Shown here piece by piece: positions 3,432 through 36,800 of a stretch of 64,000 bases of DNA; the first letter of the stretch is position 1, and the number at the start of each line of letters is the position of its first letter. The stretch covers positions 12,639-76,638 of the forward strand of contig JAFGFC010000051.1 of assembly GCA_016931325.1 (NCBI GenBank), given 5' to 3'. The notes beneath the pieces are model-generated. The model did no database searches. It was not told where the DNA came from and saw nothing but the letters and a program-made list of their open reading frames with translations. The DNA comes from Spirochaetota bacterium. GTDB lineage: Bacteria; Spirochaetota; JAHITG01; JAFGFC01. The position numbers and the translations under genes were made by a program.

Positions 3432-5048
3432 ATGATCAATAAATTTATTATTGTACTCTGCCTCTTATGTTCAGGGGGCCAGATGATCTTATCCGCTCCG
3501 GCCGGGTGGGAGGCTGACTCCATCATTCTGGAAAAGGACGGTTACAAACCCTCGTTAACATCCAGCCACGATAAACTGTTCGTCTCTTATATCAAAAAGA
3601 AAAACAATAATGATCACGTGTTTATAACCATATCCACTGACGGAGGGAACCACTGGCTCGAAGAAAAAAAGATAAGCCTTGATTTCCAATGCGATAATCC
3701 CCGGGTCATTTTTCATGACAGGGTTCTTTATGTCTTCTGGACACAATACAGGGAAGATCAGAGTGATATTTATTTCTCTTATTCCCTTGACCCTTCTTTT
3801 TCCAGGTTCAGCCCCCCTTATAATATCACGGATAATCCTTCTGATTCCATCGAACCTGTTGTTTCATCATCAGAGGAAACGATCCATCTTTTATGGTCAG
3901 ATGATTCCTCGGGTGATTACGAGATTTTTATAAAAACTTTTCATCCTCAGGAAAAAACATGGCGCCAGCCAGTTCAGATTACCCGTTTCAGCGGAGGGGC
4001 TATTTACCCTTCTGTTCTGACACTGATGAACGATATTCATCTCAGCTGGCAACAAAGGGACGGCAAGAACTGGAAAGTGATGTATTCTTCCAGCTCTGAT
4101 GCTGAGGACTGGACCGGTCCTGTCTGCATCTCTGAAGGATTGGATAATGCGTATACACCTTATATCAGCACCTCTGTTGACGGGATCCTTGTCCTCTTCC
4201 AGGGGGAGAACGATGCACAGAGCGATTTGTTTTCATGCTTTTATGATCTTTTTTATAACAGATGGTCAACCCCCTTGCCTGTGACACATGATCTTTTTAT
4301 TCAGAGATACCCTGTCTTTATTCCTTCCGGTGCGGTCCAGAACCTTTTCTGGCAGGGTATAGAAAATGACCAATCCACGATCTTTGCTTCTACCAGCTCG
4401 GATAGCGGTCTCACGTGGAGTGAAAAAATCAATATGATCCCCGGCGGGGATAATACTAAATATTTTTCTGCTTTTTATAACACTTTTGATGATACCATTT
4501 ATCTGATATGGGAGGACGAGAAAGGGCAGATCCGTTTAAAAAAACAGGACAAGTATTGTTCCAAACCTTCCATATTTAAATCTTCCCATAAGGAAGATCA
4601 GTGGTCTTTCAGAAAGGATGTCGAGGTCCATTGGAATATTGATGATGATACCTCCGGTATTCAAGATTATGCTTATCTATTAGATCAGAATGAGGATACT
4701 GTTCCTGATTTCTTTTTAATCAAGCATCCCGTGACTCAAGCCCGTTTCTATAATGTAAAAGACGGGATCTGGTATTTCCATCTGCGGGCCAGAGACAAGA
4801 AGGGCAATATCAGCCCGGCTGTCCATTACAAGATCATGATCAATTCAGAGCTTTACGCCTCATCAGAAAAATATTATATCATTAAATATGGAGATACCCT
4901 GTGGGATGTGGCCAAGAGCTTTTATAAAGAACCCACGATGTATAAAACTATAGCTGATTATAATCAGATCGAAGATGAGAATTGGATCTATCCCCATCAA
5001 ATTTTAAAAATACCGCCTAAAGAGGCTGTCGAGACATTACACAGATAA
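3432..5048 (+). CDS. Secreted BNR (Asp-box) repeat protein with a C-terminal LysM domain
   Basis: Signal peptide present. Asp-box motifs (STDGGNHW, SSDSGLTWS). C-terminal LysM (YIIKYGDTLWDVAKSFY...YNQIEDENWIYPHQILKIP). Confidence 0.6.
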   Translation: MINKFIIVLCLLCSGGQMILSAPAGWEADSIILEKDGYKPSLTSSHDKLFVSYIKKKNNNDHVFITISTDGGNHWLEEKKISLDFQCDNPRVIFHDRVLYVFWTQYREDQSDIYFSYSLDPSFSRFSPPYNITDNPSDSIEPVVSSSEETIHLLWSDDSSGDYEIFIKTFHPQEKTWRQPVQITRFSGGAIYPSVLTLMNDIHLSWQQRDGKNWKVMYSSSSDAEDWTGPVCISEGLDNAYTPYISTSVDGILVLFQGENDAQSDLFSCFYDLFYNRWSTPLPVTHDLFIQRYPVFIPSGAVQNLFWQGIENDQSTIFASTSSDSGLTWSEKINMIPGGDNTKYFSAFYNTFDDTIYLIWEDEKGQIRLKKQDKYCSKPSIFKSSHKEDQWSFRKDVEVHWNIDDDTSGIQDYAYLLDQNEDTVPDFFLIKHPVTQARFYNVKDGIWYFHLRARDKKGNISPAVHYKIMINSELYASSEKYYIIKYGDTLWDVAKSFYKEPTMYKTIADYNQIEDENWIYPHQILKIPPKEAVETLHR

Positions 5049-5067
5049 CGATCATACCTATAGCGAA

Positions 5068-17289: not shown

Positions 17290-18841
17290 AAGGGTTCAAA
17301 CCGATCATGGCAAAATATCGCCACAATGTACTGGAAATACAGAAGACAAATCTATATTTTTTCTCTTCACTGAAGGAACCGGCCAGTCCGTTGCCGATCC
17401 TGGATGACCGGGCCAGGGGCCACCAGTCATTAAAGGCGTAGACGAACTGCTTGTCTTTTATGATATGGGAAACATACGGGAGCTCGTTATTTTCCGAACG
17501 GGTTATTAAATCTATATATCGATTCATCTCATCAACATAAAACCTGTACTTTTTTAAGAATGATTCCGCTGCTCTGTTTTCTGATCTGCCCACAGCATAA
17601 TCAGCCAGCATATTGTAATCCAGAGCCATCTGTCCTGTGCCCTCCCACCAGATCATAGGTTGATCCCGCCTCTGGCTGTAGGCCTCTTTAATGGTAAAAT
17701 CAAATCCCCAGAATTTTTCCCCCTGCACCATAACCTCTACCCTGAATTTATCCTCTGCCTGTCTCACCAGTTCTATAGGATCTATGCCCATCCTGTCCAG
17801 GTCTTCAGGCCCGATCCCGCATATGGCCCATGAATTAACATCCAGGGCTTCGAGCGTATCCACAACATACTCCCATTTCCCCTTTACTTTGGTAGGGCCG
17901 TATCCACCCCGGTTAAAGGTTCCCCTCTGGTTCCAGGCTATTCTTTTGAACCAGTTTTGCGTGGCCAACTTTTCTTTCTCGATATCTTTAAAGGAAATAT
18001 CATTCTTTTTCATTATGGCCAGGACCCGGTTGTCTTTCATGTTGACCATGGCCAGACAATTCTTTAAAAAGGCATAATAGTCAATAATGTTCTCAGTGGA
18101 AAATACCTTCTGCCAGTCAGGTCCCCAACCGTATCCCATGCTGGGAGCGCCTCTTTCTCCCTGAGGCAATGTGTAATGCGTAAAATCCCTGGCCCAGTTG
18201 AACATCTTCATCACAAAATCAACAAATAAAAGCGATCGCGTTCTAAAATAATAAAACTGGGCCGCCAGCCCGACCCATATATTAGGACCGATATGGATCC
18301 TGTCCCCGTCAATACCCATAACCAGCTGGTTGTATTTTCCGGGTTTGGTATAAAAATAATGGTCAAACATGGTCACATCATAGGCATTAAAAAGCCCGAG
18401 ACAGTTGTTCTTCCTGAGTGAAAAATTATCCTCGAACAAATGCAGCATGTACTCGGCTTTTTCATAATCCTCCATATCGATCATGGCGATCAAGACCAGG
18501 GCATTGTCATACAAAAAAGCCTGACTGTCAAGGTATCCTTTTTCGGTGCGCATGAGAGGGATCTCAAGGAACCTGACATCTTCGATCCAGTTCGCGGTAC
18601 CGGTAAAACTCTGATAAAGCCCTGTTGTTTTTACCTCTATGGATTGTAAAAATCTTTTCAGCTTTTTTCTTTCATCACTGACACCGGGGAAGACCTTGTG
18701 AGACAAGATCAACAATAACAGGATGATCCAGATTACTTTTTTTGTATAAAGCGTCAGCATGATCTTTTTATTCCCTATCCGTATAATATATTTCATCAAG
18801 ATAGAATACTGATCCCTGGGAGTTATTCTGATAACTGACAA
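17261..18841 (-). CDS. Hypothetical membrane-anchored protein, possibly (alpha/alpha)6 glycosidase-like
   Basis: N-terminal transmembrane segment. Motifs AFLYDNALVLIAM, GYGWGPDW and WWEGTGQ suggest a six-hairpin glycosidase fold. Not firmly assignable. Confidence 0.35.
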   Translation of the reverse strand: MSVIRITPRDQYSILMKYIIRIGNKKIMLTLYTKKVIWIILLLLILSHKVFPGVSDERKKLKRFLQSIEVKTTGLYQSFTGTANWIEDVRFLEIPLMRTEKGYLDSQAFLYDNALVLIAMIDMEDYEKAEYMLHLFEDNFSLRKNNCLGLFNAYDVTMFDHYFYTKPGKYNQLVMGIDGDRIHIGPNIWVGLAAQFYYFRTRSLLFVDFVMKMFNWARDFTHYTLPQGERGAPSMGYGWGPDWQKVFSTENIIDYYAFLKNCLAMVNMKDNRVLAIMKKNDISFKDIEKEKLATQNWFKRIAWNQRGTFNRGGYGPTKVKGKWEYVVDTLEALDVNSWAICGIGPEDLDRMGIDPIELVRQAEDKFRVEVMVQGEKFWGFDFTIKEAYSQRRDQPMIWWEGTGQMALDYNMLADYAVGRSENRAAESFLKKYRFYVDEMNRYIDLITRSENNELPYVSHIIKDKQFVYAFNDWWPLARSSRIGNGLAGSFSEEKKYRFVFCISSTLWRYFAMIGLNPFDATVPRIE

Positions 18842-19451
18842 CCCAGCAGAAGCCGCCTATAATATAGGAAAGGTCAATACCCTTTAATGAGATCTGGTAA
18901 CGTTTCCACTTTTTACTTAAAGTGACAACCATCTCATCGGTACACCCGGAATCAGGATACGGTCCTCTGACACCACCCATGGTAAATCTGACCTCTTCTC
19001 CTCCCTGTTCCCCCCTGGCGTAGAAAACAAGTTTGGTGGCTCCCCTGAGGTCATATCCCTGATGGGGGATAAAGCCCCAGTTATTGGCCGGATTCAACCA
19101 GAAAACCCCGGCCCAGTGTTCTTCGTTCATCTCAGGATCAAAGACAGGGTCATAGACCACTTTAATGCAGCTGATCCCCTGGAAAGGTTTTTGTTTGCAG
19201 TTGCCCCAGAATCGTATGGTCAAATAATCTCCCATCCGGCCTGTCGGAAAATAGTGTACATTACCGATGGAGCCGTAGTTTTTATAGAGATAGAAGGGAA
19301 ATGTAACTTTTTTACCTTTCAGATTCAAGGGAATCTTATTCTCATAAGTTTTATTATTATTATCGCTGTAATCCGGGACATTATAATAAGTAAAAGAAAA
19401 TACCAGTCCCAGAGCCAGAATAATGTATAGTTTATTTCTTCTCGATATCAT
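18768..19451 (-). CDS. Secreted paralog-family protein A (unknown beta-sandwich or CBM-like family)
   Basis: Signal peptide present. Shares FYARGxxGxEVxF, LSKKWKRYxIxL, GGF and YLDEIYY motifs with 19461-20087, 20325-20984 and 32948-33595. Confidence 0.5.
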   Translation of the reverse strand: MISRRNKLYIILALGLVFSFTYYNVPDYSDNNNKTYENKIPLNLKGKKVTFPFYLYKNYGSIGNVHYFPTGRMGDYLTIRFWGNCKQKPFQGISCIKVVYDPVFDPEMNEEHWAGVFWLNPANNWGFIPHQGYDLRGATKLVFYARGEQGGEEVRFTMGGVRGPYPDSGCTDEMVVTLSKKWKRYQISLKGIDLSYIIGGFCWVVSYQNNSQGSVFYLDEIYYTDRE

Positions 19452-19460: not shown

Positions 19461-20087
19461 TTATCTCTCGATCTTTATCTCATCAATATAAATGGTGACC
19501 AATTCCTTGCGATACTGTTTATGGTCCATCCATCTCATGGCCAGAGAAAATCCAAGACTGATATGGGTTAGATCCTCTTTATCCAGGAGGATGGTATATT
19601 TTTTCCATTGTCGTGTTAATTTGACCGGCCCATAGAGGATCTCTGTAGAATCAGAGAACGTGCCGTAATTCCCGCCGAATTTAAAAATGACCACTTCATC
19701 TCCCTTCTTTCCCCTGGCATAAAAGGTCAGCTGTCGGGCCCCTGTAAGGTCCAGCCCGCCATCAATATTGCCCCAGTTATAGCTGGGGAAGGTCCAGTTG
19801 ATGCTGATCCAGTTAAATACCGATTGCCGCCTTGTGTTATATTCGAATTTCATGCAGTAATTCCCGGTTTTGGGTTTTTCCGTGCAGAACTGGTTATACT
19901 GAATGCAGAGAACATCACCGCCCCAGCAGGTGGGAGCATAAAATGAACGCTCCGTCCAGATATCACCATCCAGATAAATAACGACAGGATATTTTTGCGG
20001 TTTGTAGGCATAACCATAAAGACTGTTATTTATCAGGCCGACCATGAGAAAAAATATTATAAATACAGGACAGATGCTTCTTCTCAT
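19461..20087 (-). CDS. Secreted paralog-family protein B
   Basis: Signal peptide present. Motifs FYARGKKGDEVVIF, LTRQWKKYTILL and IYIDEI shared with paralogs A, C and D. Confidence 0.5.
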   Translation of the reverse strand: MRRSICPVFIIFFLMVGLINNSLYGYAYKPQKYPVVIYLDGDIWTERSFYAPTCWGGDVLCIQYNQFCTEKPKTGNYCMKFEYNTRRQSVFNWISINWTFPSYNWGNIDGGLDLTGARQLTFYARGKKGDEVVIFKFGGNYGTFSDSTEILYGPVKLTRQWKKYTILLDKEDLTHISLGFSLAMRWMDHKQYRKELVTIYIDEIKIER

Positions 20088-20324: not shown

Positions 20325-20984
20325 TTAATTTAATTCATTATAAGCGGTTCTCTGTGCAGAGAGACTGGTTGATTCTTCATTATTGGAATAATAGACATCA
20401 TCCACATAGAATGTGCAACCATCAGGATTATCCTTGGCATAAAGGACAAATCCAAAACCACCGGCTATATCCTTCAATTCCAAACAACTCAGGTCTATTT
20501 CATATTTTTTCCATTCTTTGGAAAGAACGATCTTTTTACTGGTCTTTGAATCCTTTGGGTTTTGCTGCCTTGTTCTGTTCATGCTGAATTCAACGACCTC
20601 ATTGCCATGCTTTCCCCTGGCATAGAAATATACTTTTTTAGCGGGAGTCAGATCATATCCGCCACGTATGGAGATCCAGTAATTATTGGGATTGGACTGA
20701 AAATACAGACCGGCCCATCCATCACCTTCACCGGCTGCGGTATAGGTGACTCTCAGAGCAGAAGAGCCGGAGCGGGTATTCTTATCCCATCTGTTGTCCA
20801 TTCGGATGTCCCGGATATCTCCCATCCAGCCGCTCGGAATGCCTCTATCCAATTTGCTTTCAGCATTGGAATAGATATAAAATGGGTAACGCAACACCTT
20901 GTAACTCATAAGAAAATCATCATCTTCAGCTAAAAGGATTGATCCCATTGACAAAACAATTAAAATAAGGAGTAGTCTTTTCAT
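20325..20984 (-). CDS. Secreted paralog-family protein C
   Basis: Start at MKRLLLIL with an AAGGAGG ribosome-binding site. Motifs PSGWMGD, YFYARGKHGNEVVEF, LSKEWKKYEIDL and FYVDDVYY. Closest to paralog D. Confidence 0.55.
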   Translation of the reverse strand: MKRLLLILIVLSMGSILLAEDDDFLMSYKVLRYPFYIYSNAESKLDRGIPSGWMGDIRDIRMDNRWDKNTRSGSSALRVTYTAAGEGDGWAGLYFQSNPNNYWISIRGGYDLTPAKKVYFYARGKHGNEVVEFSMNRTRQQNPKDSKTSKKIVLSKEWKKYEIDLSCLELKDIAGGFGFVLYAKDNPDGCTFYVDDVYYSNNEESTSLSAQRTAYNELN

Positions 20985-21043
20985 GATATTTACCTCCTTT
21001 CCCCTTTTCATTAGTAAGGACAATGGTCAGGGAAAAAAGTGCA

Positions 21044-21206
21044 AGAATTTTTTTTAATATTTGAGGATTCAGGCCGTGTGAAAATCAGCCCTCTGGAATT
21101 TCCAAGAGAAATTCCGAGGATAAAGTCCTGGAAATTTCTCTAGAAATTTCACAGGAAGATCTTCCAGGGAGATTCAAGGGGTCCAGGGTTCCTGGACCCC
21201 TTGAAT
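21044..21206. repeat. Structured intergenic repeat, family 1, copy 2; contains a perfect 16-bp-arm hairpin at 21172-21206
   Basis: Collinear sequence blocks with 447-578. attcaaggggtccagg-gtt-cctggaccccttgaat is a perfect inverted repeat. gaaatttct-ct-agaaatttc is also palindromic. Confidence 0.5.
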
Positions 21207-21339
21207 TCTTATTCGAAATAAAGATATCCGTGTTAATCCGCCATGGGGGCCTTTAGGCTCTGGTTACTCTTAAAAAACTTGACTTGGGGCCTTCGGGGCA
21301 ATATTTTAGAGTTTCAAGCCAAGGTATAGGGAGACAATC

Positions 21340-21765
21340 ATGGGTCATCATCATGAAAAGGAAACGGTGATACGGTTTGGTATCTCTATTGAAGAACATT
21401 TATTGGAATCATTCGACCGGTATTTGAAAAAAAAGCATTATAAGAACCGGTCAGAAGCCATAAGGGATCTGATCCGCGACAGGCTTTCTGACGCAAAGAA
21501 AGAATCAGGGGAAGAGAAGACGGTGGCCATTGTCTCGTACCTCTATAACCATCATATTCCCCAGCTAACGGAAAAGATCGTCCATATGCACCATCATTCT
21601 CACATCAAGATCTACTCCACACAGCATATTCATCTTTCCAGGGAATTGTGCCTTGAGATCACGATCGTGGAAGGGGAAATGGCCAGGGTGAAAGATTTCA
21701 GCAACAGGATACAGTCGCTAAAAGGGGTTCAGCATTTGACCGTCAATCACTACTTCTTGACCTAA
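21340..21765 (+). CDS. nikR: Nickel-responsive transcriptional regulator NikR
   Basis: N-terminal RHH (RFGISIEEHLLESFDRYLKKKHYKNRSEAIRDLIRDRL) and C-terminal His-rich metal-binding domain (HMHHHSH...), typical NikR architecture and length (141 aa). Confidence 0.85.
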   Translation: MGHHHEKETVIRFGISIEEHLLESFDRYLKKKHYKNRSEAIRDLIRDRLSDAKKESGEEKTVAIVSYLYNHHIPQLTEKIVHMHHHSHIKIYSTQHIHLSRELCLEITIVEGEMARVKDFSNRIQSLKGVQHLTVNHYFLT

Positions 21766-22286
21766 AATAGATTAGCTTCCTTGAGGATAAAATTGATCAT
21801 CAGATCAAAGTTTAATTTGTCTTTTTTAATCGGCTCGGGGAACGAGGGAAAGCAGGTGATCTTCTCCAGGGCCTTTTTAACTTCCCTATCCAAAATTTCA
21901 AATCCGGAGCTCTTTTTAATCCTGAAATTCAACAGCCTCCCGTCACAGGCCACTGTGAAATTGATAAGGGCTTTGCCCTCCAATTTTCTTTTCCTGGCCA
22001 TAAAAGGGTACTCGAGATTTTTGTATATCTCAGCTCTCAAAACCTCTCTGAAAGCGATAATGGAATTTTTCTCTGCGGATTGTTGCCCCACATCACTTTC
22101 ATCCTCCAGCCTGGTCCTGTCAGACACCTGATTGACAGGTGTAAGAATGACTTCCACGTACTCCGCTTCCTGGGCAGGGTCATGTTTTATTGAACCGGCT
22201 TTGAACAGACCGGGAATTAAAAGGAACACCGCGTGGACCAGCACAGAACAGATCAGACTAATATAAAATATCCGTTTTGTTTTCAT
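21762..22286 (-). CDS. tonB: TonB family energy transducer (C-terminal TonB domain)
   Basis: N-terminal transmembrane segment. C-terminal YPFMARKRKLEGKALINFTVACDGRLLNFRIKKSSGFEILDREVKKAL matches the TonB_C fold motif. Confidence 0.7.
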   Translation of the reverse strand: MKTKRIFYISLICSVLVHAVFLLIPGLFKAGSIKHDPAQEAEYVEVILTPVNQVSDRTRLEDESDVGQQSAEKNSIIAFREVLRAEIYKNLEYPFMARKRKLEGKALINFTVACDGRLLNFRIKKSSGFEILDREVKKALEKITCFPSFPEPIKKDKLNFDLMINFILKEANLF

Positions 22287-22289
22287 GGG

Positions 22290-22892
22290 TTATATTTTTC
22301 TCGCTTTAACCAGAAAATAACCGTTATTAACATACTTTTCAAGCAAAAATCCGGTTTTTTTCAATATGATGTCAAACCAGGATTTATCCGGAATATGATG
22401 CATTCTCATTTCAAAACCAAATTCTCTGTGCATTTTATTGATATGCTCTCTGTTCTGACTGTGTGATATCACAAGAAGACCTTTCTTCTTTAACAGATGA
22501 TATATATTCTTTAAAGTCCGGGTCTTGTTTTCAAAATGAGGAAAACAGTTAAAGCAGATCACCATATCAATTTTCTGTTCCAACTCCACATTTTCTATAT
22601 TGGCAAGAAGACATCGGGAATTAGAAATATGAACCATTTTGTTCTCGGCAAATTTTAGCATCTTTCCAGAGATATCGACCATCCATAAAAACCCGTCCAG
22701 TCCGATATGTTCAAGAATATAAGGAGAAAAATCCCCCTTGCCGCACCCCGCCTCAACAACTTTCATCCCTTTATCAAGCCCGAATTTTTTAACCAGGCCA
22801 CGTATCTTCTCCACTTCTTTTTTTTTATTGACCCAGTCATTCTGGTAGGTTTCAGCCACTGAATCAAAAATCTCTTTAATCGACCTTTGCAT
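22290..22892 (-). CDS. Class I SAM-dependent methyltransferase
   Basis: Motif I VVEAGCGKGDFSPYIL and methyltransferase-fold spacing. Embedded in the metal-uptake operon. Confidence 0.7.
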   Translation of the reverse strand: MQRSIKEIFDSVAETYQNDWVNKKKEVEKIRGLVKKFGLDKGMKVVEAGCGKGDFSPYILEHIGLDGFLWMVDISGKMLKFAENKMVHISNSRCLLANIENVELEQKIDMVICFNCFPHFENKTRTLKNIYHLLKKKGLLVISHSQNREHINKMHREFGFEMRMHHIPDKSWFDIILKKTGFLLEKYVNNGYFLVKARKI

Positions 22893-23682
22893 AAACTCTC
22901 CTTTTTGGTGAAATTAAATAAACGATCAATAAGATAAAAGAAAGGAAAATAGCCACCGTGGCGCTGACCGGCCAGTTGAAAGTAAAAGAAAATATCACGC
23001 CCCCGGCTCCCCCCAGCGAAGCAAAAAAGGAAGATAGAAAAATAAATTTTTTGATGTCATAGGTTATCTGATAGGCGATAGATGGCGGAATAATGATAAG
23101 ACTGAAAAGCAAAAGCCCGCCGATAATATTCAAATTCACCGTTATCACCGCGCCAACAAAAAAAAGTAAAACGTAAAAAAATAACCGGTCATTGATTCCC
23201 AGGGAAGCGGCGATCTCTCTGTTGAACAAGATCGCCACCAGCTCCTTGAAAAAGGCGGCTATAAACACGCCGAGGGCAAAAAGCAGAAAGATCAGGAAAA
23301 TGATATCCAGAGAATCCACCAGAAGGATGTTACCCCATAACAGATCTAGAATAACTCCTTTCTGTGGTAAAAGGCCCATTCCCAAAAATGCTATTCCCAG
23401 AACAAAAGAAAAAAGAATACTGATGGCGATATTGGGGCTGATCCTGCTTTTTTCTGACAGGGGAGGTATAAAAAGTGAGCTCAAAAGAGAAAATCCCAGG
23501 GCCATGACCCTGGATGGGAGCCCCAGGATCATACCCCATATCCCGCCCGCCATGGCCGAGTGTGACAAGGTTACACCTATAAACGGAATATTTAAAAGAA
23601 AAATAAAAACCCCTATGATCCCGCACTGTATTCCGGTTAATATAATAATGAATAAACTTTTATAAAGGATCGAATCAGTCAT
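22876..23682 (-). CDS. Metal ABC transporter permease (ABC-3 / ZnuB-TroCD-like)
   Basis: About 8 transmembrane helices, 268 aa. Pattern typical of ABC-3 permeases. Overlaps neighbours in operon fashion. Confidence 0.75.
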   Translation of the reverse strand: MTDSILYKSLFIIILTGIQCGIIGVFIFLLNIPFIGVTLSHSAMAGGIWGMILGLPSRVMALGFSLLSSLFIPPLSEKSRISPNIAISILFSFVLGIAFLGMGLLPQKGVILDLLWGNILLVDSLDIIFLIFLLFALGVFIAAFFKELVAILFNREIAASLGINDRLFFYVLLFFVGAVITVNLNIIGGLLLFSLIIIPPSIAYQITYDIKKFIFLSSFFASLGGAGGVIFSFTFNWPVSATVAIFLSFILLIVYLISPKRRVYAKVD

Positions 23683-24403
23683 AAATATAACTCAGGAAAT
23701 CTTTTTTTTCCCAGAGCTCCTTTTTTTGCCCCTGAAAAATGACATGGCCGTTCTTTAAAACAACGATCCTGTTGCTGAATTCCGAAATATGGGTTATCAG
23801 GTGGGTCACGAAAAGGACCGTGAGTCTGTGATCGATGTATATCTTTTCCACCATTTTCAAAAATTTTTTATAAGCCTGAATATCAAGATTGACGTTTGGT
23901 TCATCCAGAAAAAGTATCTCAGGTTTCTGGATCAGGACAAAAGCCAGCATCACCTTCTGCCGTTCTCCTCCGGATATCAGGCCAAAAGGTTTATTCAAAA
24001 GATGATGGATCTTGAACTCTTTTTCTACGGAGCGGATAATATCTCTGTCGTTTTTATCAATTCTTTTAAGTATCCCCTTGCCCGAACGACCCATGACAAG
24101 CACGTCCTTGACTAGAATGGGAAAATACGGATCCATATCCAGCCTCTGAGGCATATAGGCTATATTTTTTCTGATCGAACGTATCTTTGACTTTGTATTT
24201 TCCTGATTAACAAAAATCTCGCCCTGCCCGGCTTTATAAAAACCCAGAATTGTTTTCAAAAGGCTTGTCTTTCCTGACCCGTTCGGTCCCAGGATCGTAA
24301 TAAATTCTCCCTTTTTAACATCCAGATCAATATGATTCAATATGGCATGACCATGACCGGAAAGGCAAACATTTTTAACTCTTATCGCATATCCCTGAGC
24401 CAT
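23675..24403 (-). CDS. Metal ABC transporter ATP-binding protein (ZnuC/TroB-like)
   Basis: Walker A GPNGSGKTSLLK, signature LISGGERQ, Walker B ILFLDEP. Confidence 0.85.
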   Translation of the reverse strand: MAQGYAIRVKNVCLSGHGHAILNHIDLDVKKGEFITILGPNGSGKTSLLKTILGFYKAGQGEIFVNQENTKSKIRSIRKNIAYMPQRLDMDPYFPILVKDVLVMGRSGKGILKRIDKNDRDIIRSVEKEFKIHHLLNKPFGLISGGERQKVMLAFVLIQKPEILFLDEPNVNLDIQAYKKFLKMVEKIYIDHRLTVLFVTHLITHISEFSNRIVVLKNGHVIFQGQKKELWEKKDFLSYIYD

Positions 24404-24409
24404 ATTCGG

Positions 24410-25228
24410 TTATTCCTCCAGACCCTTCTTTAACTGTTCCAAATTGCCTGACCAGAGGTGAAGGAACATGGGATCCCTGGAAAAATCAGGAAAGTTGGCA
24501 AATATAATGATTTTTTTGTTTAGTCGTTTTTCAAAAACCAGGGCTGTGGGATGATGGTCCCCTGTTCTATTGCTGATGATATAATCTATCCCTTCTCTTT
24601 TTGAATCCCTTCTGATCTTTTCTATCTGCTTTAATCCTGAACTTTCCAGACCGGCAAAAGTGGCTATCACCTCCAGGCCCAGATACTCGCAGAATCCTTT
24701 TTGAAAGGCGCTGGCTATCACTTTGATACGTTTCTTCTTTATCCTCTCCAGGAAAGAACGTTCTTTTTCAACAGTCTGCTGAATGGTTTTAATCGTTTGT
24801 TCCCGGTTCGTCTTTATTTTCAGGCTATCATCCGGAAAATAACGGCTCAGGATCGTTTCCATCTCTTTTAACGCGCTGAAATAGTTCTCTGGCACTGTAA
24901 GATCAGGACTGGTAATGATATGAATCTTTATCAACGGATTGATCTTTTGTATTTTTGCCACCAAATATTTCTGAAAAGGATGGATCATTAAAAAAGCGGC
25001 CTTTCGGATGGAGAGGGCATCAGAGGGCTTTAGATCAAAATGTCCCGGACACTGGCCCGGCGGCACAAGATTCATGATAGCCAGATCCGGATCCAGATCC
25101 CTGACCAGTGATATGATCATGGTTGTACCGGCTAGAACGATCCTGCCTTGCGGCCGTTCTTTAGAACAGGATAAAATAAAGGCCAGCAAAAGGAACAGAG
25201 TTATATAATTTTTCATTGTTGTTCGCAC
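24410..25228 (-). CDS. Metal-binding periplasmic or lipoprotein substrate-binding protein (TroA/ZnuA cluster A-I)
   Basis: Lipobox-like LSCS. HFDLKPSD...A motif like the HxyxPSP/D motif of ZnuA/TroA substrate-binding proteins. Confidence 0.65.
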   Translation of the reverse strand: MRTTMKNYITLFLLLAFILSCSKERPQGRIVLAGTTMIISLVRDLDPDLAIMNLVPPGQCPGHFDLKPSDALSIRKAAFLMIHPFQKYLVAKIQKINPLIKIHIITSPDLTVPENYFSALKEMETILSRYFPDDSLKIKTNREQTIKTIQQTVEKERSFLERIKKKRIKVIASAFQKGFCEYLGLEVIATFAGLESSGLKQIEKIRRDSKREGIDYIISNRTGDHHPTALVFEKRLNKKIIIFANFPDFSRDPMFLHLWSGNLEQLKKGLEE

Positions 25229-25244
25229 AGGATGACCATCCGTT

Positions 25245-27113
25245 CTAAATATTTAACAGCACGCCTGTTTTCAAGATCAACCCCGGCGCCGGATAACCTG
25301 ATCTTACTAGATATTTTTCATTAAGGATATTTTCCGCATCCAGATAAAAATGCCATTCTGTATTGCTCATGGTTAGGTCATAGTTGACAGAAGAGTTGAG
25401 AACCATATAATCATCCAGTTTTTCTTTTTTTTCATCTGAATCATACCGGTCCCGGGCAAATTCTGCCTCCACTTTCATCGACAGAGGGGAAGTGATTTGA
25501 ATGATCGTATAGGCTTTGCCATTGAACAAGGCCAGGTGGGCTGTTTTTTTGCCTGGATCAAGATATCCCAAAAGCAAGCCGCTTTTTATCGCCGGGATCG
25601 GTTTGACCCAAGCCTCCAGTTCCAGGCCATTTATGATAATCTTGCCTGAATTTTCAAACGAGGGTGGAAAGGGAGGGGGGCCTACCTGCTGTATCAAATT
25701 TTTTCCTGTTATTTGATAATACGATAATTTGTAGAAAAATCGATTATGAATTTCCTTCAGGCCTGTTTCATACTGCCAGTAATCTTCCGGTTCCGTGACA
25801 TTATATTCAGGAGGGTTTATGATAGCCATGCATTCTCTGCCAAATTCAGGTGTCTTATATCCTCTCTGCGCATTGCCATAAAGATACTGATCAGCCCGGA
25901 TATTGACCTGGATCCCACCTGAAGGAATGATGATCTCATCCCATACGTTATTATAAGCGTACCGGATGCCTCCGGATAAAATTACAATATCCAGCTTTTG
26001 ATCCATCAAGGTGTACGCCGCGTAATCATTTTGAATTTTTTTCAATTCCTGATGACCGCCCGCCGGGTGATCATTATATACACCGCCAAACTGCTGCCAG
26101 TCAAATCCAATCTTTGTCTGATTCCCCTTGAATAATTGCACGGTTTCCATTATCCTGAGGCCATAGTCCTCGAAAATATTATTGCTGTCATTAAAAAATT
26201 TATTCAGCCCGGTATCAGCATACAGGATCACTTTGCCTCTTATATGGTCATACTCATGTTCAACCCTGAAATCAAAATCCCTCTGAATGGTTTTACCGGC
26301 AGCGTCATATCGACCCCAGTCAGCATTCGTGGGACCCGGGTTATAAAAGAGGATATCCGCGTAATCGACATTGGCCCGGACATACCAGTTGGCGTTGATC
26401 TCGTATCCTGCTCCCATATGATAATTCTGTTGATAGGAATCAGAATTTTCTCTGCCTCCCTCTGTGGACTTGTAGCCCACAGACAGGTTATAGTCAAAAG
26501 GTCCTGTCTTGAACCGATTGTTTATAAAATAATCCTGAGAGTTGTAACTGCCGTAAGCCAGGCCAATGGCTGTTCTTATACCGTCTTTTCTCATCCGCTT
26601 GGTTCTGATATCAATGACACCACCCACAGCCTGGTTCCCGTGTTCGACTCCTGAGGGTCCTTTTATCACCTGCACGCTTTCAACAGCATCCAAAGACAGC
26701 GTATCAAGCAGAGGATGCCGCCATATCCCCATGCTCTGCGGCCGGTCATCGACAAAGGTCAGCACCCCTGTATTGGGTATCTCCCCCAGGCCGCGGATCT
26801 TGAATACAGACGGATTCTTGGAACCGACCTGGAAACTGACCGGACCTGTCTTGTTAAAATAAATACCGGAAACATCTTTGGTAAGATCAATCACATTATG
26901 CCGGCTGTTATTTTCAATAGTCTGGGAACGAAAGGTCACAACGGATTGACTCGAACGGTTCAAATCAGAAACAGACTCATCTTTCACGACAGGAACAGTC
27001 TCTTTTTTAACCTTGATCTCGCCCAGGTCAATGGTTTCGGATCCTTTCTGAGCCTGGCCGAAGCCAATGAATCCGGCAAGGAATATAAATATTATTGATA
27101 GATGTTTCATCAA
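25245..27113 (-). CDS. TonB-dependent outer-membrane receptor
   Basis: Signal peptide present. Plug-domain motifs (VFKIRGLGEIPNTGVLTFVDDRPQ, GPSGVEHGNQAVGGVIDIRTK) and a long beta-barrel region. Confidence 0.8.
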   Translation of the reverse strand: MMKHLSIIFIFLAGFIGFGQAQKGSETIDLGEIKVKKETVPVVKDESVSDLNRSSQSVVTFRSQTIENNSRHNVIDLTKDVSGIYFNKTGPVSFQVGSKNPSVFKIRGLGEIPNTGVLTFVDDRPQSMGIWRHPLLDTLSLDAVESVQVIKGPSGVEHGNQAVGGVIDIRTKRMRKDGIRTAIGLAYGSYNSQDYFINNRFKTGPFDYNLSVGYKSTEGGRENSDSYQQNYHMGAGYEINANWYVRANVDYADILFYNPGPTNADWGRYDAAGKTIQRDFDFRVEHEYDHIRGKVILYADTGLNKFFNDSNNIFEDYGLRIMETVQLFKGNQTKIGFDWQQFGGVYNDHPAGGHQELKKIQNDYAAYTLMDQKLDIVILSGGIRYAYNNVWDEIIIPSGGIQVNIRADQYLYGNAQRGYKTPEFGRECMAIINPPEYNVTEPEDYWQYETGLKEIHNRFFYKLSYYQITGKNLIQQVGPPPFPPSFENSGKIIINGLELEAWVKPIPAIKSGLLLGYLDPGKKTAHLALFNGKAYTIIQITSPLSMKVEAEFARDRYDSDEKKEKLDDYMVLNSSVNYDLTMSNTEWHFYLDAENILNEKYLVRSGYPAPGLILKTGVLLNI

Positions 27114-27256
27114 TCATAGTCTCCCTTATTTCGTGTTACTTTTTTATAAAAAATATTACTTTATCAGGAAAAGTCAAGTTAAAAGTAATTTAAACAGTTA
27201 TAATATGGATCAATGAAATAAATTGAAGAATGGCAGACTGATTTTATCTTGAAAAC

Positions 27257-28963
27257 TCAGAGGATTAGATTTAAAATACCGCCTACGATCAGCGTGGACA
27301 GGATCATAACCGCTGTGGCTTTTGCCATATCCAGAATACCCAGCTCTTTAACAAGCACGGTAAAGGTAGCGACACAGGGAAAGTACATGGTAAGGATAAC
27401 ACTGGCGATCACCAGCTGCTTGAGGCTCATTCCCAGAGGGGCCAGCATTCCCACAGCCACATCCTTTCTTAAAAAACCGATGACCAGGGCTCCCACTGAC
27501 TCTTTTGGCAATCCGAGCACTCCTTTGATCACCGGCTCACTCAATTTTCCTAAAAAAGAGATCACACCAAGAACATAAAGCATATTGATAATAAATACTC
27601 CTACAATAACATAAGGAACAGCCTCGGATAAAAAACCTTTGATCCGCATCCAGAGCTTTTTTAAAAGTCCTTTCCAGTAAGGGATACGGTAGGGGGGGAT
27701 CTCCAGAAAGATCTCAGGACTTTCACCTTTTATCAACTTGTTCATGATAACGCCAAGGACAAATCCGACTATAAAAAGAGTGAAAAAGACCACGCCTATC
27801 CCTTTAACGCCATATTGCCCCACAAGACCCATTACCATGGCTATCTGGGCGGTACAGGGCACACAGATGGCCATGACCGTGGCCGCGATAAACCGTTCCT
27901 TCTTGGTTTCCAGAATACGCGTGGCCAGGGCGCCTGGGACATTACAGCCCAGGCCCAGGATCATGGGGATGATGGAAAGCCCGTGTAATCCCAGACGATG
28001 CATAAAATTATCAACCAGCACAGCCAGCCGCGGCAGATATCCGGAATCTTCCAGGAAGGATAGTATAAGATAAAAAGCAAAAATATAGGGTAATACCATG
28101 GCAAAGGGGACAAAAAGACCTGTTGTTAAAAGCCCGAGAGATTCAACAAAGTCAATGCGACCGTTGATCAGCCTTCCTATCAGGATGTCATGGATCATAC
28201 CCGGTTTTAAAAGAGACGATAATTTCAGGATCAGGGGCCCATAAATTTTTTCAAAAAACGGTTCAAATAAATAGGTGATGAGCGATTCCCCGATAAATCG
28301 TATAACAGCAAAGGAAAGTATAAGAACAAGAATAGAAAGCGGGAGACCGGTCATAGGTTTAATGGTAAGATCCAGGACCCTTTCCCAAACGGTATGGTGC
28401 CGATGGCTTATCCTCTGGACATTCTGAATAATATGACCCACTTTGCTCCATCTCTGGTTTTCTCTGAAGGTATAGGATCTGGCTTTGGCCTGGTCTATTC
28501 TTGAAAAAAGGTTTTTTATCCCTTCGCCGGTCAGAGCGCAGGTCGTAACGACCGGCACTCCGATTATTTTCTCAAGTCGATCAACATTAATTGAAATACC
28601 AATATGTTTCACTTCATCCCAAAAGTTTAAAACAACAATAACGGGTTTACCTGATTTTAAAAGCTGCAAAGTTAAATTTAAATTCCTTTCCAGGTTCGTG
28701 GCATCCAGCACATTAATGACCAGGTCCGATGAATGAAAGATCTTAACAGCGACTTCCTCAGCCCGGTTTGTCGCCTTCAGGGAATATGTTCCGGGAGCAT
28801 CGATCAGCTCTGACTTTTCATTCTCTTTTCTGATATACCCCTTCGTGTACTCTACTGTTGTTCCTGTGTAATTGGAAGCGATAACATTCACACCGGTGAG
28901 CCGGGAAAAAATTACGCTCTTCCCTACATTAGGATTTCCCATTAAGACAATTCGTTTCATCAT
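27257..28963 (-). CDS. feoB: Ferrous iron transporter FeoB (G-protein domain plus membrane domain)
   Basis: GNPNVGKSVIFSRLTG (G1 motif), NYTGTTVE, followed by a polytopic membrane domain. Confidence 0.9.
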   Translation of the reverse strand: MMKRIVLMGNPNVGKSVIFSRLTGVNVIASNYTGTTVEYTKGYIRKENEKSELIDAPGTYSLKATNRAEEVAVKIFHSSDLVINVLDATNLERNLNLTLQLLKSGKPVIVVLNFWDEVKHIGISINVDRLEKIIGVPVVTTCALTGEGIKNLFSRIDQAKARSYTFRENQRWSKVGHIIQNVQRISHRHHTVWERVLDLTIKPMTGLPLSILVLILSFAVIRFIGESLITYLFEPFFEKIYGPLILKLSSLLKPGMIHDILIGRLINGRIDFVESLGLLTTGLFVPFAMVLPYIFAFYLILSFLEDSGYLPRLAVLVDNFMHRLGLHGLSIIPMILGLGCNVPGALATRILETKKERFIAATVMAICVPCTAQIAMVMGLVGQYGVKGIGVVFFTLFIVGFVLGVIMNKLIKGESPEIFLEIPPYRIPYWKGLLKKLWMRIKGFLSEAVPYVIVGVFIINMLYVLGVISFLGKLSEPVIKGVLGLPKESVGALVIGFLRKDVAVGMLAPLGMSLKQLVIASVILTMYFPCVATFTVLVKELGILDMAKATAVMILSTLIVGGILNLIL

Positions 28964-29199
28964 TTTCTACCTGTTTCTTTCACGAAAATCCTTCTGGCCA
29001 TCCCAAAACCCAGGGCCACCTGACAGGCACCGATCTTGATACAAACCGGGCCTTTCATGAATTGAGAACTTTTCTTTTCTATTACAACCCCCTTTCTTAT
29101 TCCCAGGGCTTCCAATTTATTTATGAAACCATGACCGCCATCCAACCCGGTTATCAGCCCTTTTTCACCTTCCTTAAGATCAATTAGAGTTTTCATCAT
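28960..29199 (-). CDS. feoA: FeoA family protein
   Basis: SH3-like FeoA pattern (LKEGEKGLITGLDGG...LGIRKGVVIEKK...GPVCIKIGACQVAL). Start at MMKTLIDL; the ORF extends further into the upstream gene. Confidence 0.7.
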   Translation of the reverse strand: MMKTLIDLKEGEKGLITGLDGGHGFINKLEALGIRKGVVIEKKSSQFMKGPVCIKIGACQVALGFGMARRIFVKETGRK

Positions 29200-29200
29200 T

Positions 29201-29635
29201 TCACTCCTTTTTCTTCTGCAGATATCGTTTGAACTCGTTCTTGACTGGGGTTTTCTTTCTCTCAAAAGATTCCATAAAAGAGACAAATTCGACCAGCCTT
29301 TCAAAGGTCTTTTCATGGATGTAGTGCTCGATCCTGCAGGCATCTTCCCTGGCTATCTTTTCATCAACACGCAGGATCTCTTTTAAGAATTTTATCAATA
29401 TTTTATGCTTTTTATATACCTGCCTGGCTTTTCTGACACCCGATGGCGTGAGTTCAATATACCCGTAGTGTTCGTGATTCACGTATCCTTTTTCTGACAG
29501 CACTTTTAACGCCCCTATAACAGAGGAGGTTTTCACGTTCATGGTAGAGGTCAGATCCTTGACCCTTACCACTTTGCGCTTGGTCTGTTCCATAAAGATG
29601 GTTTCAATATAATCTTCCAGGCTGGGTGTCAGCAT
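29201..29635 (-). CDS. DtxR/MntR-family metal-dependent transcriptional repressor
   Basis: LEDYIETIF...VRVKDLTSTMNVKTSSVIGALKVLSEKGYV...ACRIEHYI matches the DtxR helix-turn-helix and metal-site pattern. 144 aa, no SH3 domain. Confidence 0.8.
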   Translation of the reverse strand: MLTPSLEDYIETIFMEQTKRKVVRVKDLTSTMNVKTSSVIGALKVLSEKGYVNHEHYGYIELTPSGVRKARQVYKKHKILIKFLKEILRVDEKIAREDACRIEHYIHEKTFERLVEFVSFMESFERKKTPVKNEFKRYLQKKKE

Positions 29636-32947: not shown

Positions 32948-33595
32948 TTAATTGATTTTATTTTTTGTTGCGCTTACCCTTCCTACTGTATCAATCATCT
33001 CATCCTGATTGGTGTAGTAAATCTCATCAATATAGAATGTCACTGTGCCTGAATTATCGCTGGCTTTTACCAGGACCGAGAATCCACCGGCCATATCCTC
33101 AAACTTGTTGTTTAATTCGAGTTCGTATTTCTTCCACTCTTTTGAGAGTTCAATTCTTTTAGAGATCTTTGCCTGCTGCCCTTTCAGAGGGGCCATTCTG
33201 AATTCAACAACTTCATCACCTTTGTTACCTCTGGCATAGAAATAAATCTTTTTGGCTGTAGAGAGGTCATATCCGCCTCTTATCGATGTCCAGTGGTTAT
33301 AAGGATTCTGCGCAAAATTCAATGAAGCCCATTTTGCTCCGACTGTTTCAGCGCTGTATTCGATCTTCATACAGCTTGTTCCTTTCTTGGGATTGATCGT
33401 CCATTTGTGGTCGATCTTCAGATCCCTGAAATCTCCTGCCCACCCGCTGGGTATACAATTATTAATACGGCTCGTACCGTCTTTGTAGACCTGGAAGGGG
33501 TAACGCAGAACCTTAAAGCATTTTAAATGTTCAGTATAAAGATTGAGAACCATTAACCCGACGATCAAAATGACAACAACCATTAACTTTTTCAT
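32948..33595 (-). CDS. Secreted paralog-family protein D
   Basis: KVLRYPFQVYKDG...PSGWAGD...YFYARGNKGDEVVEF...LSKEWKKYELEL...FYIDEIYY; about 45-50% identical to paralog C by eye. Confidence 0.55.
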   Translation of the reverse strand: MKKLMVVVILIVGLMVLNLYTEHLKCFKVLRYPFQVYKDGTSRINNCIPSGWAGDFRDLKIDHKWTINPKKGTSCMKIEYSAETVGAKWASLNFAQNPYNHWTSIRGGYDLSTAKKIYFYARGNKGDEVVEFRMAPLKGQQAKISKRIELSKEWKKYELELNNKFEDMAGGFSVLVKASDNSGTVTFYIDEIYYTNQDEMIDTVGRVSATKNKIN

Positions 33596-33675
33596 GGCTT
33601 TTTACCTCCTTTTCCCTTTTCATTAGTAAGGACAATGAAAAGATAAAAAAGTGCAAGAATTTTTTAGAAAAAATC

Positions 33676-33837
33676 AACCACTGAAGGCTCTGAAAACAGA
33701 GCGAAGCCTGCCCGAAGGGTGGAGCAAAGCCTCCCGTAGGGACTGAAAATTCATATTATAATTTGAAAAAATATGAAATCTGCTGTTACTTGAAAATCTT
33801 ATTAATCTCTGTGAATTCAGTGAAGATCAGTGGTTTT
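33676..33837. repeat. MITE-like repeat, family 2 (termini aaccactgaa ... cagtggtt)
   Basis: Terminal inverted repeats plus internal ctcccgtagggactgaa and gtgaattcag blocks, shared with 58237-58283 and 63371-63480. Confidence 0.45.
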
Positions 33838-33854: not shown

Positions 33855-36800
33855 TCAGGTCTGGACGCAGTTGCGGCCTTTTTCTTTGGCCTTATACAGG
33901 GCTTTATCAGAACGGACAACCAGTTCCTGCCATTCTTCGCCCGGTTCCAGCTCGGCCACTCCAATGGAAGCGGTGATCCTGAGCTGAATATCTTTCTTCC
34001 CCATTCGATAAGAGACCCTGTTGCTTTCAATGATCTTGCGAAGTTTTTCAGCCAGTATTTTAGCCCCATCCAGTCCTGTTTCAGGGATAATAACAGCGAA
34101 TTCCTCTCCCCCGTATCGGGCAGCCGAATCGCTTTTTCTGATATTCTTCTTTATTATCAGAGCTATCTTCTTCAGGACCAGATCCCCGGCCCTATGGCCG
34201 TATTTATCGTTAAAATTCTTAAAATGATCGATATCAAGCATAAGCAGGCTTAACTTGTTCTTATACCGTGTAGCCAGTTCCACGCTTTTCGATAGAAAAT
34301 TTTCAAAAAAATTATGTGTATAAAGTTCTGTCAGGCCGTCGGTTATGGCTTTTTTATAGAGAATGGCATTCTCAATAGAAATCCCGGCCTGACGTGAAAT
34401 AACTTCCAGGACCCTCAGATCTTCTTCTGTAAATACTCCGCTCACCAGCCGATTATCCAGATAGATCACACCCAGCATCTCTTCCCGGCCCATAATAGGC
34501 AGGCTGAGAGCCGACTTTATCCCGAACCGCACAATACTGGCTTCATCCTTAAAATCTTTGTCCAGGGTAGCATCATCCACGATCAAAGGCTTTTTTCCCT
34601 GTTCGACTCTGTTAATGATACCACTGGATGTATGGAACAACTCCCCTTCCAGTTCCACATCTTTTACGTTCTTGGCTACTTTGACTTCCAGAATTTTATC
34701 CTTTTTTTCTTCCACGGGATATAAAAGCAGAATACCGCGTTCCGCCCCCACCAGCTGGATCGCCTTTTCAATAATCTTCTCCAGCAGTTCCTCAAGGTCC
34801 AGAATACTGGAAAAATAACGGCTGGTTTCCAGGACCGTGGTCATTTCCCGCTCGATCTGCAAACGTTCTTTGGGGCTCTCTTTGGCTACCTGCACTTTGA
34901 GATCCAACCCCAGCACGGAGGCGCACCTTTTTATGTATTCCCTGGACCCGATCTCCTGAAAGACCTTAAAAGCCTGCTGCCAGTAGTGATGGGCGCTTTC
35001 GATCTTATTTCCAGCTTCATAAAAGTAGCCCATTTCAAAAAGCGTCTTGCCCAGCTCGAATTTTCTGCCTAATTTCCTGGCCAGTTCCATACTTTTAAAA
35101 AATAAAATTTCCGCTTTTTTTCTTTTATTAATTAAGATATGATATTTGGCATACGACCGCAACGCGGACATATAATGAGTGACCCAGGGGGCGGCCTTTT
35201 TCAAAGCGTCACGGCAAAGGGAACGGATCAGTTTTAAATGGCCTCTGTCCTTCTTTTTCTTCTTTTTGTAATTTTCTATATGAGCATCAGCCAGAACAAA
35301 GTAGAGATTGGCCGTATAATTTTTTAAAAAATCATGGGTTTCATTAATTTCCCTGGCCAGCTGGGCGTACTTGATGGCATCCGCATAATTTCCTTTTTCA
35401 TAAGATAAAATAGACATGCCGATATGCATCCCCAGCAGCGGAAACGGTAATTTTTTAGCCTGGACAATGGAATATCCTCTCCTTAAAGCTTTTTCGGCGG
35501 TATCAATCTCTCCCTGTTCCAGATAGACTTCGATCAGATAACCTAAACAGCTGGTAATGCCAAAGTCATCTTTAATCTCCTCGCTGATCTTTAAATATTC
35601 AAGCAAATGGCCGACCGCTTCTCTGAAGTCACCGGAATAAAGATAATCAATTCCAATCCCCTGAAGCGTCATGCCCAGATTCCAGATATCCTCCACCAGC
35701 CTGTATTTTTCAGCGGCCTGACCCAGATAATCCCGGCTTTTAGCATATTCGCCTTTAAATTGATAGTAATAACCGATGAATTGAAGTGACTGCGCCAGTT
35801 CCCGCTCGTCACCCAGTTCCCTTCGAATTTCCAGAGCCTTAAAATGATATTTTTCAGCTCCCTTGAACATGGGAATTGACATAAGGAGCGAAGCGTAGGC
35901 CCCGATACTGGCGGCCAGCTCTTTTGAACGACCAAGCCTTGATTGAGCGATATGTAATCCTCGAAGGACAGAATGAATAAACTTGCTGATATCCGTCAGG
36001 ATATACATCCAGTCCAGGCTATGATGTGTCACAATGATCGTTATATCCTGGGGATCCTTATGCTTGACCTGTTTTTTTAAATAATAGCGGTTTAAAAAAG
36101 AATGAAAGAAATGCACCGCGGCTTCTCTTACCAGGGCCATCATGACCTCGCTTTTCCTGCGAGGCACTTTCTCGCCTAAAAGAGACAAGCCCCTGGCAAT
36201 GACCTCTTCTGACTCCACCCAGCTGCCCATGTTCAAGTGAGCCTGACCCATATGGATATACAACTTGGCTTTTTCAAATGGGTTCCTCTTTAAAGGAAGG
36301 ATCTCTTTACACAGGTTGATCACTTCATTGGACTTGCCGGCGCTCAGATAGACTTCGATCAACCCTTCTTTTGCCTGCATCCATCTCTTATCCTTTGTTT
36401 TCTCCTTCTCCAGAATGTTCAGCACAATATTATAATATCGTATGGCTTCCTCATTGGCATAATTCTCTTTAGCCCTGTCAGCGGCCCTGATCCCGTATTG
36501 AAGCGATCTGTGTTTATCTCCCCCTTCAATAAAATGATGCGCCAGGTCAAAAATAACCTCTTCGATATTCTGTTTATTTCTTTCTTCCAGGGCCGTCCCG
36601 ATCATAAGATGATATTTTACCCTCTCTTTTTTTGTCATCCGGGCATAAAAAGCGTCCCTGACGCGATCGTGTACGAACATCAACGCGCCTTTTCTGGAAC
36701 TTTTTTCTAAGAGTTGTTTTTCTATTGTAGAATCGATCAGATGAACCAGAATATCCCTGCTCTCTTTCATCAGATCCTGTATCATATCGATCTGAAATTC

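Follow-up and report, generated by a model that had tools for sequence, protein, structure and literature searches.

A conserved leader upstream of two CBM-like paralogs is best explained as a lineage-specific ECF-type promoter

Introduction

Within a 64-kb stretch of DNA (referred to here, in its entirety, as 'the window'), four paralogs encoding CBM-like proteins (A to D) are arranged in tandem or dispersed. Two of these (C and D, separated by 12.6 kb and annotated in an NCBI metagenome-assembled genome, or MAG, labelled 'Spirochaetes bacterium') were noted in an original prediction to share a leader of approximately 70 nt that is missing in front of the other two. The same prediction proposed that the leader corresponds to a selected cis element (a promoter, an operator or a 5'UTR structure), and that it fits neither a sigma-70 nor a sigma-54 promoter. 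The question raised by this locus is what type of element the leader represents, and what it would do for the two genes that follow it.

No Pfam model was found for the C/D protein family. An AlphaFold model of C (pLDDT 83.8) displays a signal peptide followed by a beta-sandwich, the best structural matches of which are carbohydrate-binding modules (CBM30, CBM11, CBM8 and CBM4); judged from that model, C appears to be a secreted, sugar-binding-like (CBM30/CBM11-like) protein that carries a signal peptide. Elsewhere, genes of this family are usually found after GH2-like genes and before GH72-like genes.

Extent and conservation of the element

The regions upstream of C and D contain a common block of 65-71 nt that is 91% identical, in agreement with the predicted length, and a repeat search of the window recovered the same pair as a 65-nt match at 91% identity (repeat family D6). 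The sense strand is the minus strand of the window; the C element reads from 21055 to 20985 and the D element from 33665 to 33596 (Table 1). In sense order, both consist of a first block, AAAAAATTCTTGCACTTTTTT, followed by 7 variable nucleotides, a second block, CATTGTCCTTACTAATGAAAAGGG(G/A)AAAGGAGGTAAA, and the ATG. A 20-nt sub-block (AAAAATTCTTGCACTTTTTT) and a 24-nt sub-block (CATTGTCCTTACTAATGAAAAGGG) are perfect in both elements, and each occurs exactly twice in the 64 kb when up to 3 mismatches are allowed, where 0.07 (20-nt) and 0.00 (24-nt) matches would be expected by chance. No copy of the element precedes paralog A or B in a scan of the window, which returned two copies in total (those of C and D), such that the predicted absence from those two genes was borne out. 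The start of C had been placed at 20985, and is actually found at 20984, one base away.

The conservation of this region is sharply bounded. In a sliding comparison of C and D, identity is 80-97% over the element and approximately 50-70% within the coding sequence, and it falls to background immediately upstream of the A-tract, while near-perfect identity extends across 29 nt downstream of TGTCC. Across the entire coding sequences, C and D are 60% identical at the nucleotide level, and their proteins are 46% identical (within the range of about 45-50% that had been estimated). The original prediction had named a recent segmental duplication, with equal conservation across the coding sequence, as an outcome that would count against a selected element; the observed values are 60% for the coding sequence versus 91% for the element. 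In addition, all 5 mismatches between the 20-nt and 24-nt perfect blocks are packed into the 7 adjacent nucleotides of the variable stretch, in which only 2 of 7 positions are identical. The presence of a saturated spacer between two perfect blocks argues for selection rather than for recent duplication, and the element is, on the reading of its sequence, a real and selected cis element, as had been proposed.

Table 1. Positions in the window of the four paralogs, the conserved element and its component parts
Feature	Coordinates	Strand	Basis or remark
Paralog A	19461-20087		own canonical promoter TTGACG-N17-TACATT
Paralog B	18768-19451		starts 9 nt after A
Paralog C, secreted beta-sandwich CBM-like, 219 aa, NCBI locus tag JW827_03225	20325..20984	-	
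Complete conserved element of C (putative promoter + 5'UTR)	20985..21055	-	block scans, repeat family D6
A-tract of C, A8 in sense, UP-element-like, directly upstream of -35	21048..21055	-	A-rich in 7/8 aligned instances
Putative -35 hexamer TTGCAC (C)	21039..21044	-	TTG invariant in 8/8 instances
T6 tract directly after -35 (C)	21033..21038	-	TTTTT invariant in 8/8 instances
Variable spacer part CCCTGAC (C)	21026..21032	-	C/D comparison, 8-instance alignment
Putative -10 TGTCC (C), exactly 16 nt after TTGCAC	21018..21022	-	TGTC invariant in 8/8
Putative start region TTACTAATGA + short 5'UTR (C)	20985..21017	-	C/D comparison
Shine-Dalgarno GGAGG (C)	20993-20997	-	sequence
Paralog D, CBM-like, 215 aa, JW827_03300	32948..33595	-	
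Complete conserved element of D	33596..33665	-	block scans, repeat search
A-tract of D, A6 in sense	33660..33665	-	sequence, 8-instance alignment
Putative -35 hexamer TTGCAC (D)	33651..33656	-	8-instance alignment
T6 tract (D)	33645..33650	-	8-instance alignment
Variable spacer part ATCTTTT (D)	33638..33644	-	C/D comparison, 8-instance alignment
Putative -10 TGTCC (D)	33630..33634	-	8-instance alignment
Putative start region + 5'UTR (D), SD GGAGG 33605-33609	33596..33629	-	C/D comparison

Recurrence of the element in related loci

The absence of further copies, which the original prediction had likewise named as a point against its claim, was not what was found. Beyond C and D, six more distinct copies are present in four related metagenome loci; two copies in the near-identical locus L023 were counted as duplicates and lie outside of the resulting eight instances. 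All eight distinct copies are intergenic and sense-oriented, are located 28-237 nt from a start codon, and precede either genes of the C/D CBM-like family or genes for zf-HC2/FecR anti-sigma factors. When the eight (from 5 loci) were aligned without gaps, the only invariant columns were TTG, TTTTT and TGTC, and the upstream flank is A-rich. The bipartite core that is retained in the relatives comprises an A-tract, TTGyAC with T5-7, and then TGTCy exactly 16 nt after the hexamer; the 7 variable positions of C and D are inside the spacer between the hexamer and TGTCy.

Two of these copies are found on a contig (L017) that shares its sequencing run with the source MAG. One of them (L017a, AAAAAATATTTGCACTTTTTTTAAATCACGTTGTCCTAACTTATGAGAAG) lies downstream of an intrinsic terminator (L017:213-240), and retains AAAAAAT-N2-TTGCAC-T7 and TTGTCCTAACTTATGA with spacing identical to that of C and D (exactly 16 nt from TTGCAC to TGTCC); it is 237 nt from the ATG of a family member, P0007, with no adjoining Shine-Dalgarno (SD) sequence. 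When the surrounding intergenic region was compared to the window by BLAST, its best match was the element itself (E 4e-7 to D and 3e-5 to C). The other, weaker copy (L017b, L017:1208-1234) reads TTTGCC-T6-N11-TGTCC-CTTT-TAATGA, and is located 28 nt before a gene whose product contains zf-HC2, FecR, PEGA and PQQ-like beta-propeller domains and, judged from those domains, is an anti-sigma factor. A truncated second copy of block 1 was also observed on this contig (L017:505-545), fused to the SD of P0007 (tttctaaaaaagaTGCACTTTaaggaggtaaataATG) and resembling a C/D leader from which the central 33 nt have been removed.

Full-length homologues of the L017 anti-sigma factor (34-36% identity) are encoded on three contigs from other samples (L021, L022 and L023), which display a common gene order: a terminator, a sigma-70-type promoter, an ECF sigma gene, an anti-sigma gene, a first motif (a) and a CBM-like gene of 207 aa, followed by a terminator, a second motif (b), a zf-HC2/FecR-like gene and a C/D-like CBM gene (41% identity to C). 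Both motifs consist of TTGTCC or TTGTAC with T5-7, and TGTCT 16 nt after the hexamer. In all three of these loci, the motif is found directly downstream of an ECF sigma/anti-sigma operon. In L017, L021 and L022, copies of the motif are also found 20-45 nt beyond an intrinsic terminator, and no strong sigma-70-type site was found between terminator and gene in those three loci (L017 contains a weak 9/12 match).

The element is restricted to a subset of the family. Most C/D homologues, including a third paralog from the same MAG (on L001), have only an SD upstream; the element is absent upstream of that gene and of the family members on L002, L003, L015, L016 and L018, and most of these six are in an operon, after a GH2-like gene. 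A profile based solely on C, D and L017a ranked the 'b' copies as the top matches in L021 (E 0.0044) and L022 (E 0.1), with L017b and the 'a' copies weak on score alone (E 2.4-10). A degenerate pattern, which was partly defined after its copies had been seen, matched 8 times in 123 kb versus 0.29 expected, with 7 of the 8 matches intergenic and sense-oriented. Broader scans, of collections that do not contain the source genome, were set aside: a search of genome_contigs with TTGCACTTTTTTN{5,9}CATTGTCC returned 11 matches in unrelated taxa, which were attributed to chance since the similarity was confined to the pattern, and a search of metagenome_contigs with TTGCACTTTTN{11,13}TGTCCTNACTNAT returned a single match, on a eukaryote-like contig, that was likewise attributed to chance.

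Assignment to a promoter class

The housekeeping promoters of this genome are strikingly canonical (cTTGACw-N16-17-TAnnnT, with more than 10 in the window), and departures from that form are therefore easy to recognize. Such promoters were observed at approximately 13 intergenic regions, for example upstream of 43761, 45207, 25245-27113, 41481 and 38946. A sigma-70 scan through the element yielded no TTGACA-like/TAnnnT pair at 16-18 nt, and at 16-17 nt from TTGCAC, where a housekeeping -10 belongs, the sequence reads TGTCCT or GTCCTT. The predicted misfit to sigma-70 and sigma-54 thus holds: TTGCAC is not followed by a TAnnnT at 16-18 nt, and a GG-N10-GC pair is absent. A sigma-54 site (TGGCAC-N5-TTGC) was rejected, since the A-tract occupies the place of the -24 GG and no TTGC is found 5 nt after TTGCAC; a sigma-28 site was rejected on the reading of the sequence, and a Bacteroidetes-type promoter (TTTG/TAnnTTTG) was rejected on its spacing, which is 24-25 nt here versus 19-21. 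Tracts in the element are too short for phase-variable homopolymers, and that reading was also dismissed.

Promoters read by sigma factors of the extracytoplasmic-function (ECF) type are bipartite, with G-AAC and a T-rich tail at -35 and (C/T)GTC at -10, approximately 16-17 nt apart, and typically drive genes for secreted or envelope proteins and for anti-sigma factors; an A-rich upstream flank, and adjacency to an ECF sigma/anti-sigma operon, are also part of the expected signature. By comparison with these features, the element appears to match: its hexamer ends in AC and is followed by a T-run, its putative -10 is centred on GTC, its flank is A-rich, and its targets and its adjacency in the relatives are of the expected kind. 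Its -35 departs from the classic GAAC and reads G(C/T)AC, and a search of the literature on TTGCAC as a sigma-factor motif returned nothing relevant.

Several aspects of the arrangement further indicate a promoter. The core is found at a variable distance from the start codon and adjoins ECF sigma/anti-sigma genes, which favours a promoter over a 5'UTR structure; its fixed internal geometry, together with start-codon distances of 28-237 nt, positions after terminators and unrelated upstream sequence, argues for the same assignment; and the stretch that has changed between C and D lies in the spacer between two hexamers, which fits the expectation for a promoter. The sequence immediately upstream is a palindromic repeat in C and a terminator in L017; in D it is a MITE-like repeat that stops 5-10 nt short of the A-tract. 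Because that context is unrelated in every case, the cassette has to supply its own promoter.

Taken together, the element is probably an ECF-type promoter joined to a short 5'UTR that carries an SD. In this mechanism, an alternative sigma factor of the ECF type would bind and read a promoter composed of the A-tract, the -35 TTGCAC with T6, a 16-nt spacing and the -10 TGTCC, and the transcript would begin approximately 7 nt beyond the -10, around TAATGA. The remainder of the C/D block (TTACTAATGAAAAGGGRAAAGGAGGTAAA) would correspond to the start region and a short 5'UTR of roughly 25-30 nt with a strong Shine-Dalgarno sequence (AAAGGAGGT). C and D would thereby be placed under an envelope-signalling ECF sigma/anti-sigma system, with A and B expressed from an ordinary housekeeping promoter.

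One feature that counts against a promoter as the sole function is the 29 nt of near-identity downstream of TGTCC, which would appear to exceed what a promoter alone needs. Part of that region is an ATGA that lies precisely 6 nt beyond TGTCC in each of the four copies from this sample (C, D and those of L017), and because of this fixed position it probably marks start-site context rather than coding sequence. The ATG within it shares, in the C element (CTAATGAAAAGG, window 21011-20985), the reading frame of the annotated start and would lengthen the coding sequence by 9 codons; in D the two frames differ, and in L017 it opens unrelated ORFs of 5-18 codons. An upstream in-frame ATG or leader peptide was rejected as an explanation for the element, since neither frame nor peptide is conserved among C, D and L017.

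The identity of the sigma factor was also considered. The only ECF sigma in the window (680-1393) is 19 kb from the element, is 24% identical to the L021 sigma and is not orthologous to it; as it is also not preceded by the motif, it was rejected as the cognate factor. The search recovered no orthologue carrying the label of the source MAG. In L021 and L022, what precedes the sigma gene is TTGACA-N18-TATAAT, and not the motif. The usual signature of autoregulation is thus absent, and the motif precedes anti-sigma-like genes instead; autoregulation is common among ECF systems and not universal.

Alternative explanations for the conserved leader

The same sequence could in principle act as RNA. 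Under that explanation, which seems quite unlikely, transcription would start upstream of the A-tract, and the 5' block (GCACUUUUUU) would pair with AAAGGAGGU in a hairpin of approximately 55 nt that hides the SD, forming a fourU-type thermosensor or a switch opened by a factor. Minimum-free-energy folds of both leaders do produce the hairpin (55-nt core: -17.9 and -15.3 kcal/mol; z-scores against shuffled sequences: -2.5 and -3.3 for C and D, respectively), the stem of which uses G-U pairs and is therefore confined to the sense strand; pairing of the variable 7 nt is possible in C as well as in D, in different registers; and in C, a TTCACA-N17-TATTAA site, read by eye, would start a transcript at the A-tract. 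However, conservation of the 5' block extends to L017a, L021 and L022, in which it is not followed by an SD; the fold of L017a is no more stable than those of shuffled sequences (z +0.4 and +1.6), and the fold of L017b leaves the 5' block unused. Upstream of the block in D and L017, there is no consistent sigma-70 promoter, and a MITE-like repeat or a terminator abuts it instead. Covariation in the 5'UTR, which had been put forward as a check, gave the opposite result: the sole position changed on both sides of the stem between C and D converts a C-G pair to A.A. Across the homologous leaders, the SD-pairing hairpin is not maintained and no compensatory change was found, and a search of the whole window with Rfam 15 returned zero hits at the gathering score, with only generic hairpins, far below threshold, in E-value mode. 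A dual-purpose cassette, in which an ECF promoter is combined with a hairpin that silences read-through, is similarly improbable. If it were true, transcripts started by the ECF sigma would not contain the U-tract and would be freely translated, while read-through transcripts from upstream would fold the hairpin of -15 to -18 kcal/mol and be translationally silent, such that the sigma signal would exert strict control over the expression of C and D. In the same reading, and as a separate point, the motif would define a previously undescribed regulon that unites an ECF sigma and a beta-propeller anti-sigma with secreted, stand-alone CBM-like proteins, within an uncultured lineage that carries the label Spirochaetes.

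It is also unlikely that the blocks are contacted by a transcription factor, rather than by sigma, with the element serving an activator or repressor as an operator that overlaps a weak promoter. In L017, the truncated copy of block 1 is fused to an SD and not accompanied by block 2, which suggests that block 1 may act as a module alone, and C adjoins nikR. Against this, the element displays neither dyad nor direct-repeat symmetry; its two invariant cores are spaced like a -35 and a -10 (22 nt from start to start) in 8 instances; it offers no usable TAnnnT -10 to the housekeeping sigma; and nikR is not near D or the copies in the relatives. An operator for NikR or Fur in particular was rejected, as no such palindrome is present. 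A functionless remnant, left by a recent segmental duplication or by gene conversion between the 5' ends of paralogs, is very improbable. Some 5' exchange is conceivable, given the paralogy of C and D at a distance of 12.6 kb and the similarity of the signal-peptide regions of C and P0007, and could account for the near-identical 5'UTR part. The clustering of the five mismatches, however, is not uniform as in a recent copy, identity falls abruptly on both sides of the element, and the same bipartite core has been kept in other organisms at 34-41% protein identity.

Genomic surroundings

Additional features were observed in the vicinity of the two genes. A MITE- or REP-like intergenic repeat is present at window positions 33676-33835 and 63371-63480 and, in partial form, at approximately 58230-58285, with terminal inverted repeats (AACCACTGAA...TTCAGTGGTT) and a common internal sequence (CAGAGCCTTCAGTCCCTRCGGGAG); one of these copies occupies all of the intergenic stretch that directly precedes the D element. 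Another intergenic repeat, which is rich in palindromes (family D19; TTCAGGCCSTGTGAAAAT ... AGGATAAAGTCCYTGRAAT ... TTCCAGGGAGATT), is found at approximately 430-600 and 21065-21215. It has the same orientation at both sites, where it lies upstream of the ECF sigma gene (680-1393) and of nikR (21340-21765), and could be either a shared operator region or a mobile repeat.

The ECF sigma gene at 680-1393 is followed by an anti-sigma-like gene (1401-2492), the N-terminus of which is distantly homologous to the L017 anti-sigma, and then by an unknown ORF, a LysM/BNR protein (3432-5048) and a PorP/SprF-plus-TPR protein (5068-7764). The region from 680 to 7764 may constitute a second ECF regulon, and contains a T9SS-type domain that is unexpected in a genome labelled Spirochaetes. 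nikR is divergent from C and belongs to the region 21340-29343, which includes a minus-strand metal-uptake cluster (TonB, a SAM methyltransferase, a ZnuB/ZnuC/ZnuA-like ABC transporter, a TonB-dependent receptor, FeoB and FeoA). Directly upstream of D, on the same strand, is a gene (33855-38900) for a 1681-aa signalling protein with Ser/Thr kinase, AAA_16, TPR, GAF and GGDEF domains.

Implications

The element is best explained as a lineage-specific ECF-type promoter and leader that would place C and D in an ECF sigma/beta-propeller anti-sigma regulon of CBM-like proteins. The four paralogs of the window would accordingly be split into two regulatory classes, in which expression of C and D depends upon a signal and that of A and B is housekeeping. 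While an element of this kind is an ordinary one, and no new type of mechanism is revealed by it, the motif (an A-tract, TTGyAC-T5-7, and TGTCy 16 nt after the hexamer) provides a handle for finding an uncharacterised ECF regulon in uncultured bacteria.

Comparison with known systems

The leaders of C and D each contain a run of U that is able to pair with AGGAGG within one hairpin, similar to fourU and other SD-sequestering RNA thermometers. The differences are that the other copies of the element lack the pairing partner, that the hairpin far exceeds known thermometers in stability, and that covariation is not observed.

The consensus for E. coli sigmaE is GGAACTT-N16-TCTGA/GTCTAA, and that for B. 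subtilis sigmaW/X/M is TGAAAC or TGTAAC-N16-17-CGTA/CGAC/CGTC. Like the promoters of ECF (group 4) sigma factors, the element described here is bipartite and non-palindromic, with a -35 that ends in AC and continues into a T-run, a -10 built on GTC, a spacing of approximately 16-17 nt and an A-rich region upstream of the -35, and it shares with them its secreted or envelope and anti-sigma targets and, in the relatives L021, L022 and L023, a position next to a sigma/anti-sigma operon. It differs from them in that its -35 reads TTG(C/T)AC rather than GGAAC, and in that the sigma gene of L021 and L022 is not preceded by the motif.

Carbohydrate-linked sigma systems are a further point of comparison. 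The sigmaI-RsgI system of Clostridium thermocellum is functionally comparable and linked to carbohydrates, with a promoter of a type that differs in sequence from the one described here. The original group ECF10 / ECF240 is associated with FecR-like anti-sigma factors and neighbouring carbohydrate-binding genes (PMC7826278). Unlike in ECF10/ECF240, the sensor in the present case is a PQQ-like beta-propeller with PEGA/FecR parts, and no SusC/SusD pair is present. What is held in common with carbohydrate-linked ECF systems is the combination of an ECF-type sigma with a membrane anti-sigma that carries an extracytoplasmic sensor domain, adjoined by CBM-like genes and, elsewhere in the family, by GH2/GH72-like glycosidases.
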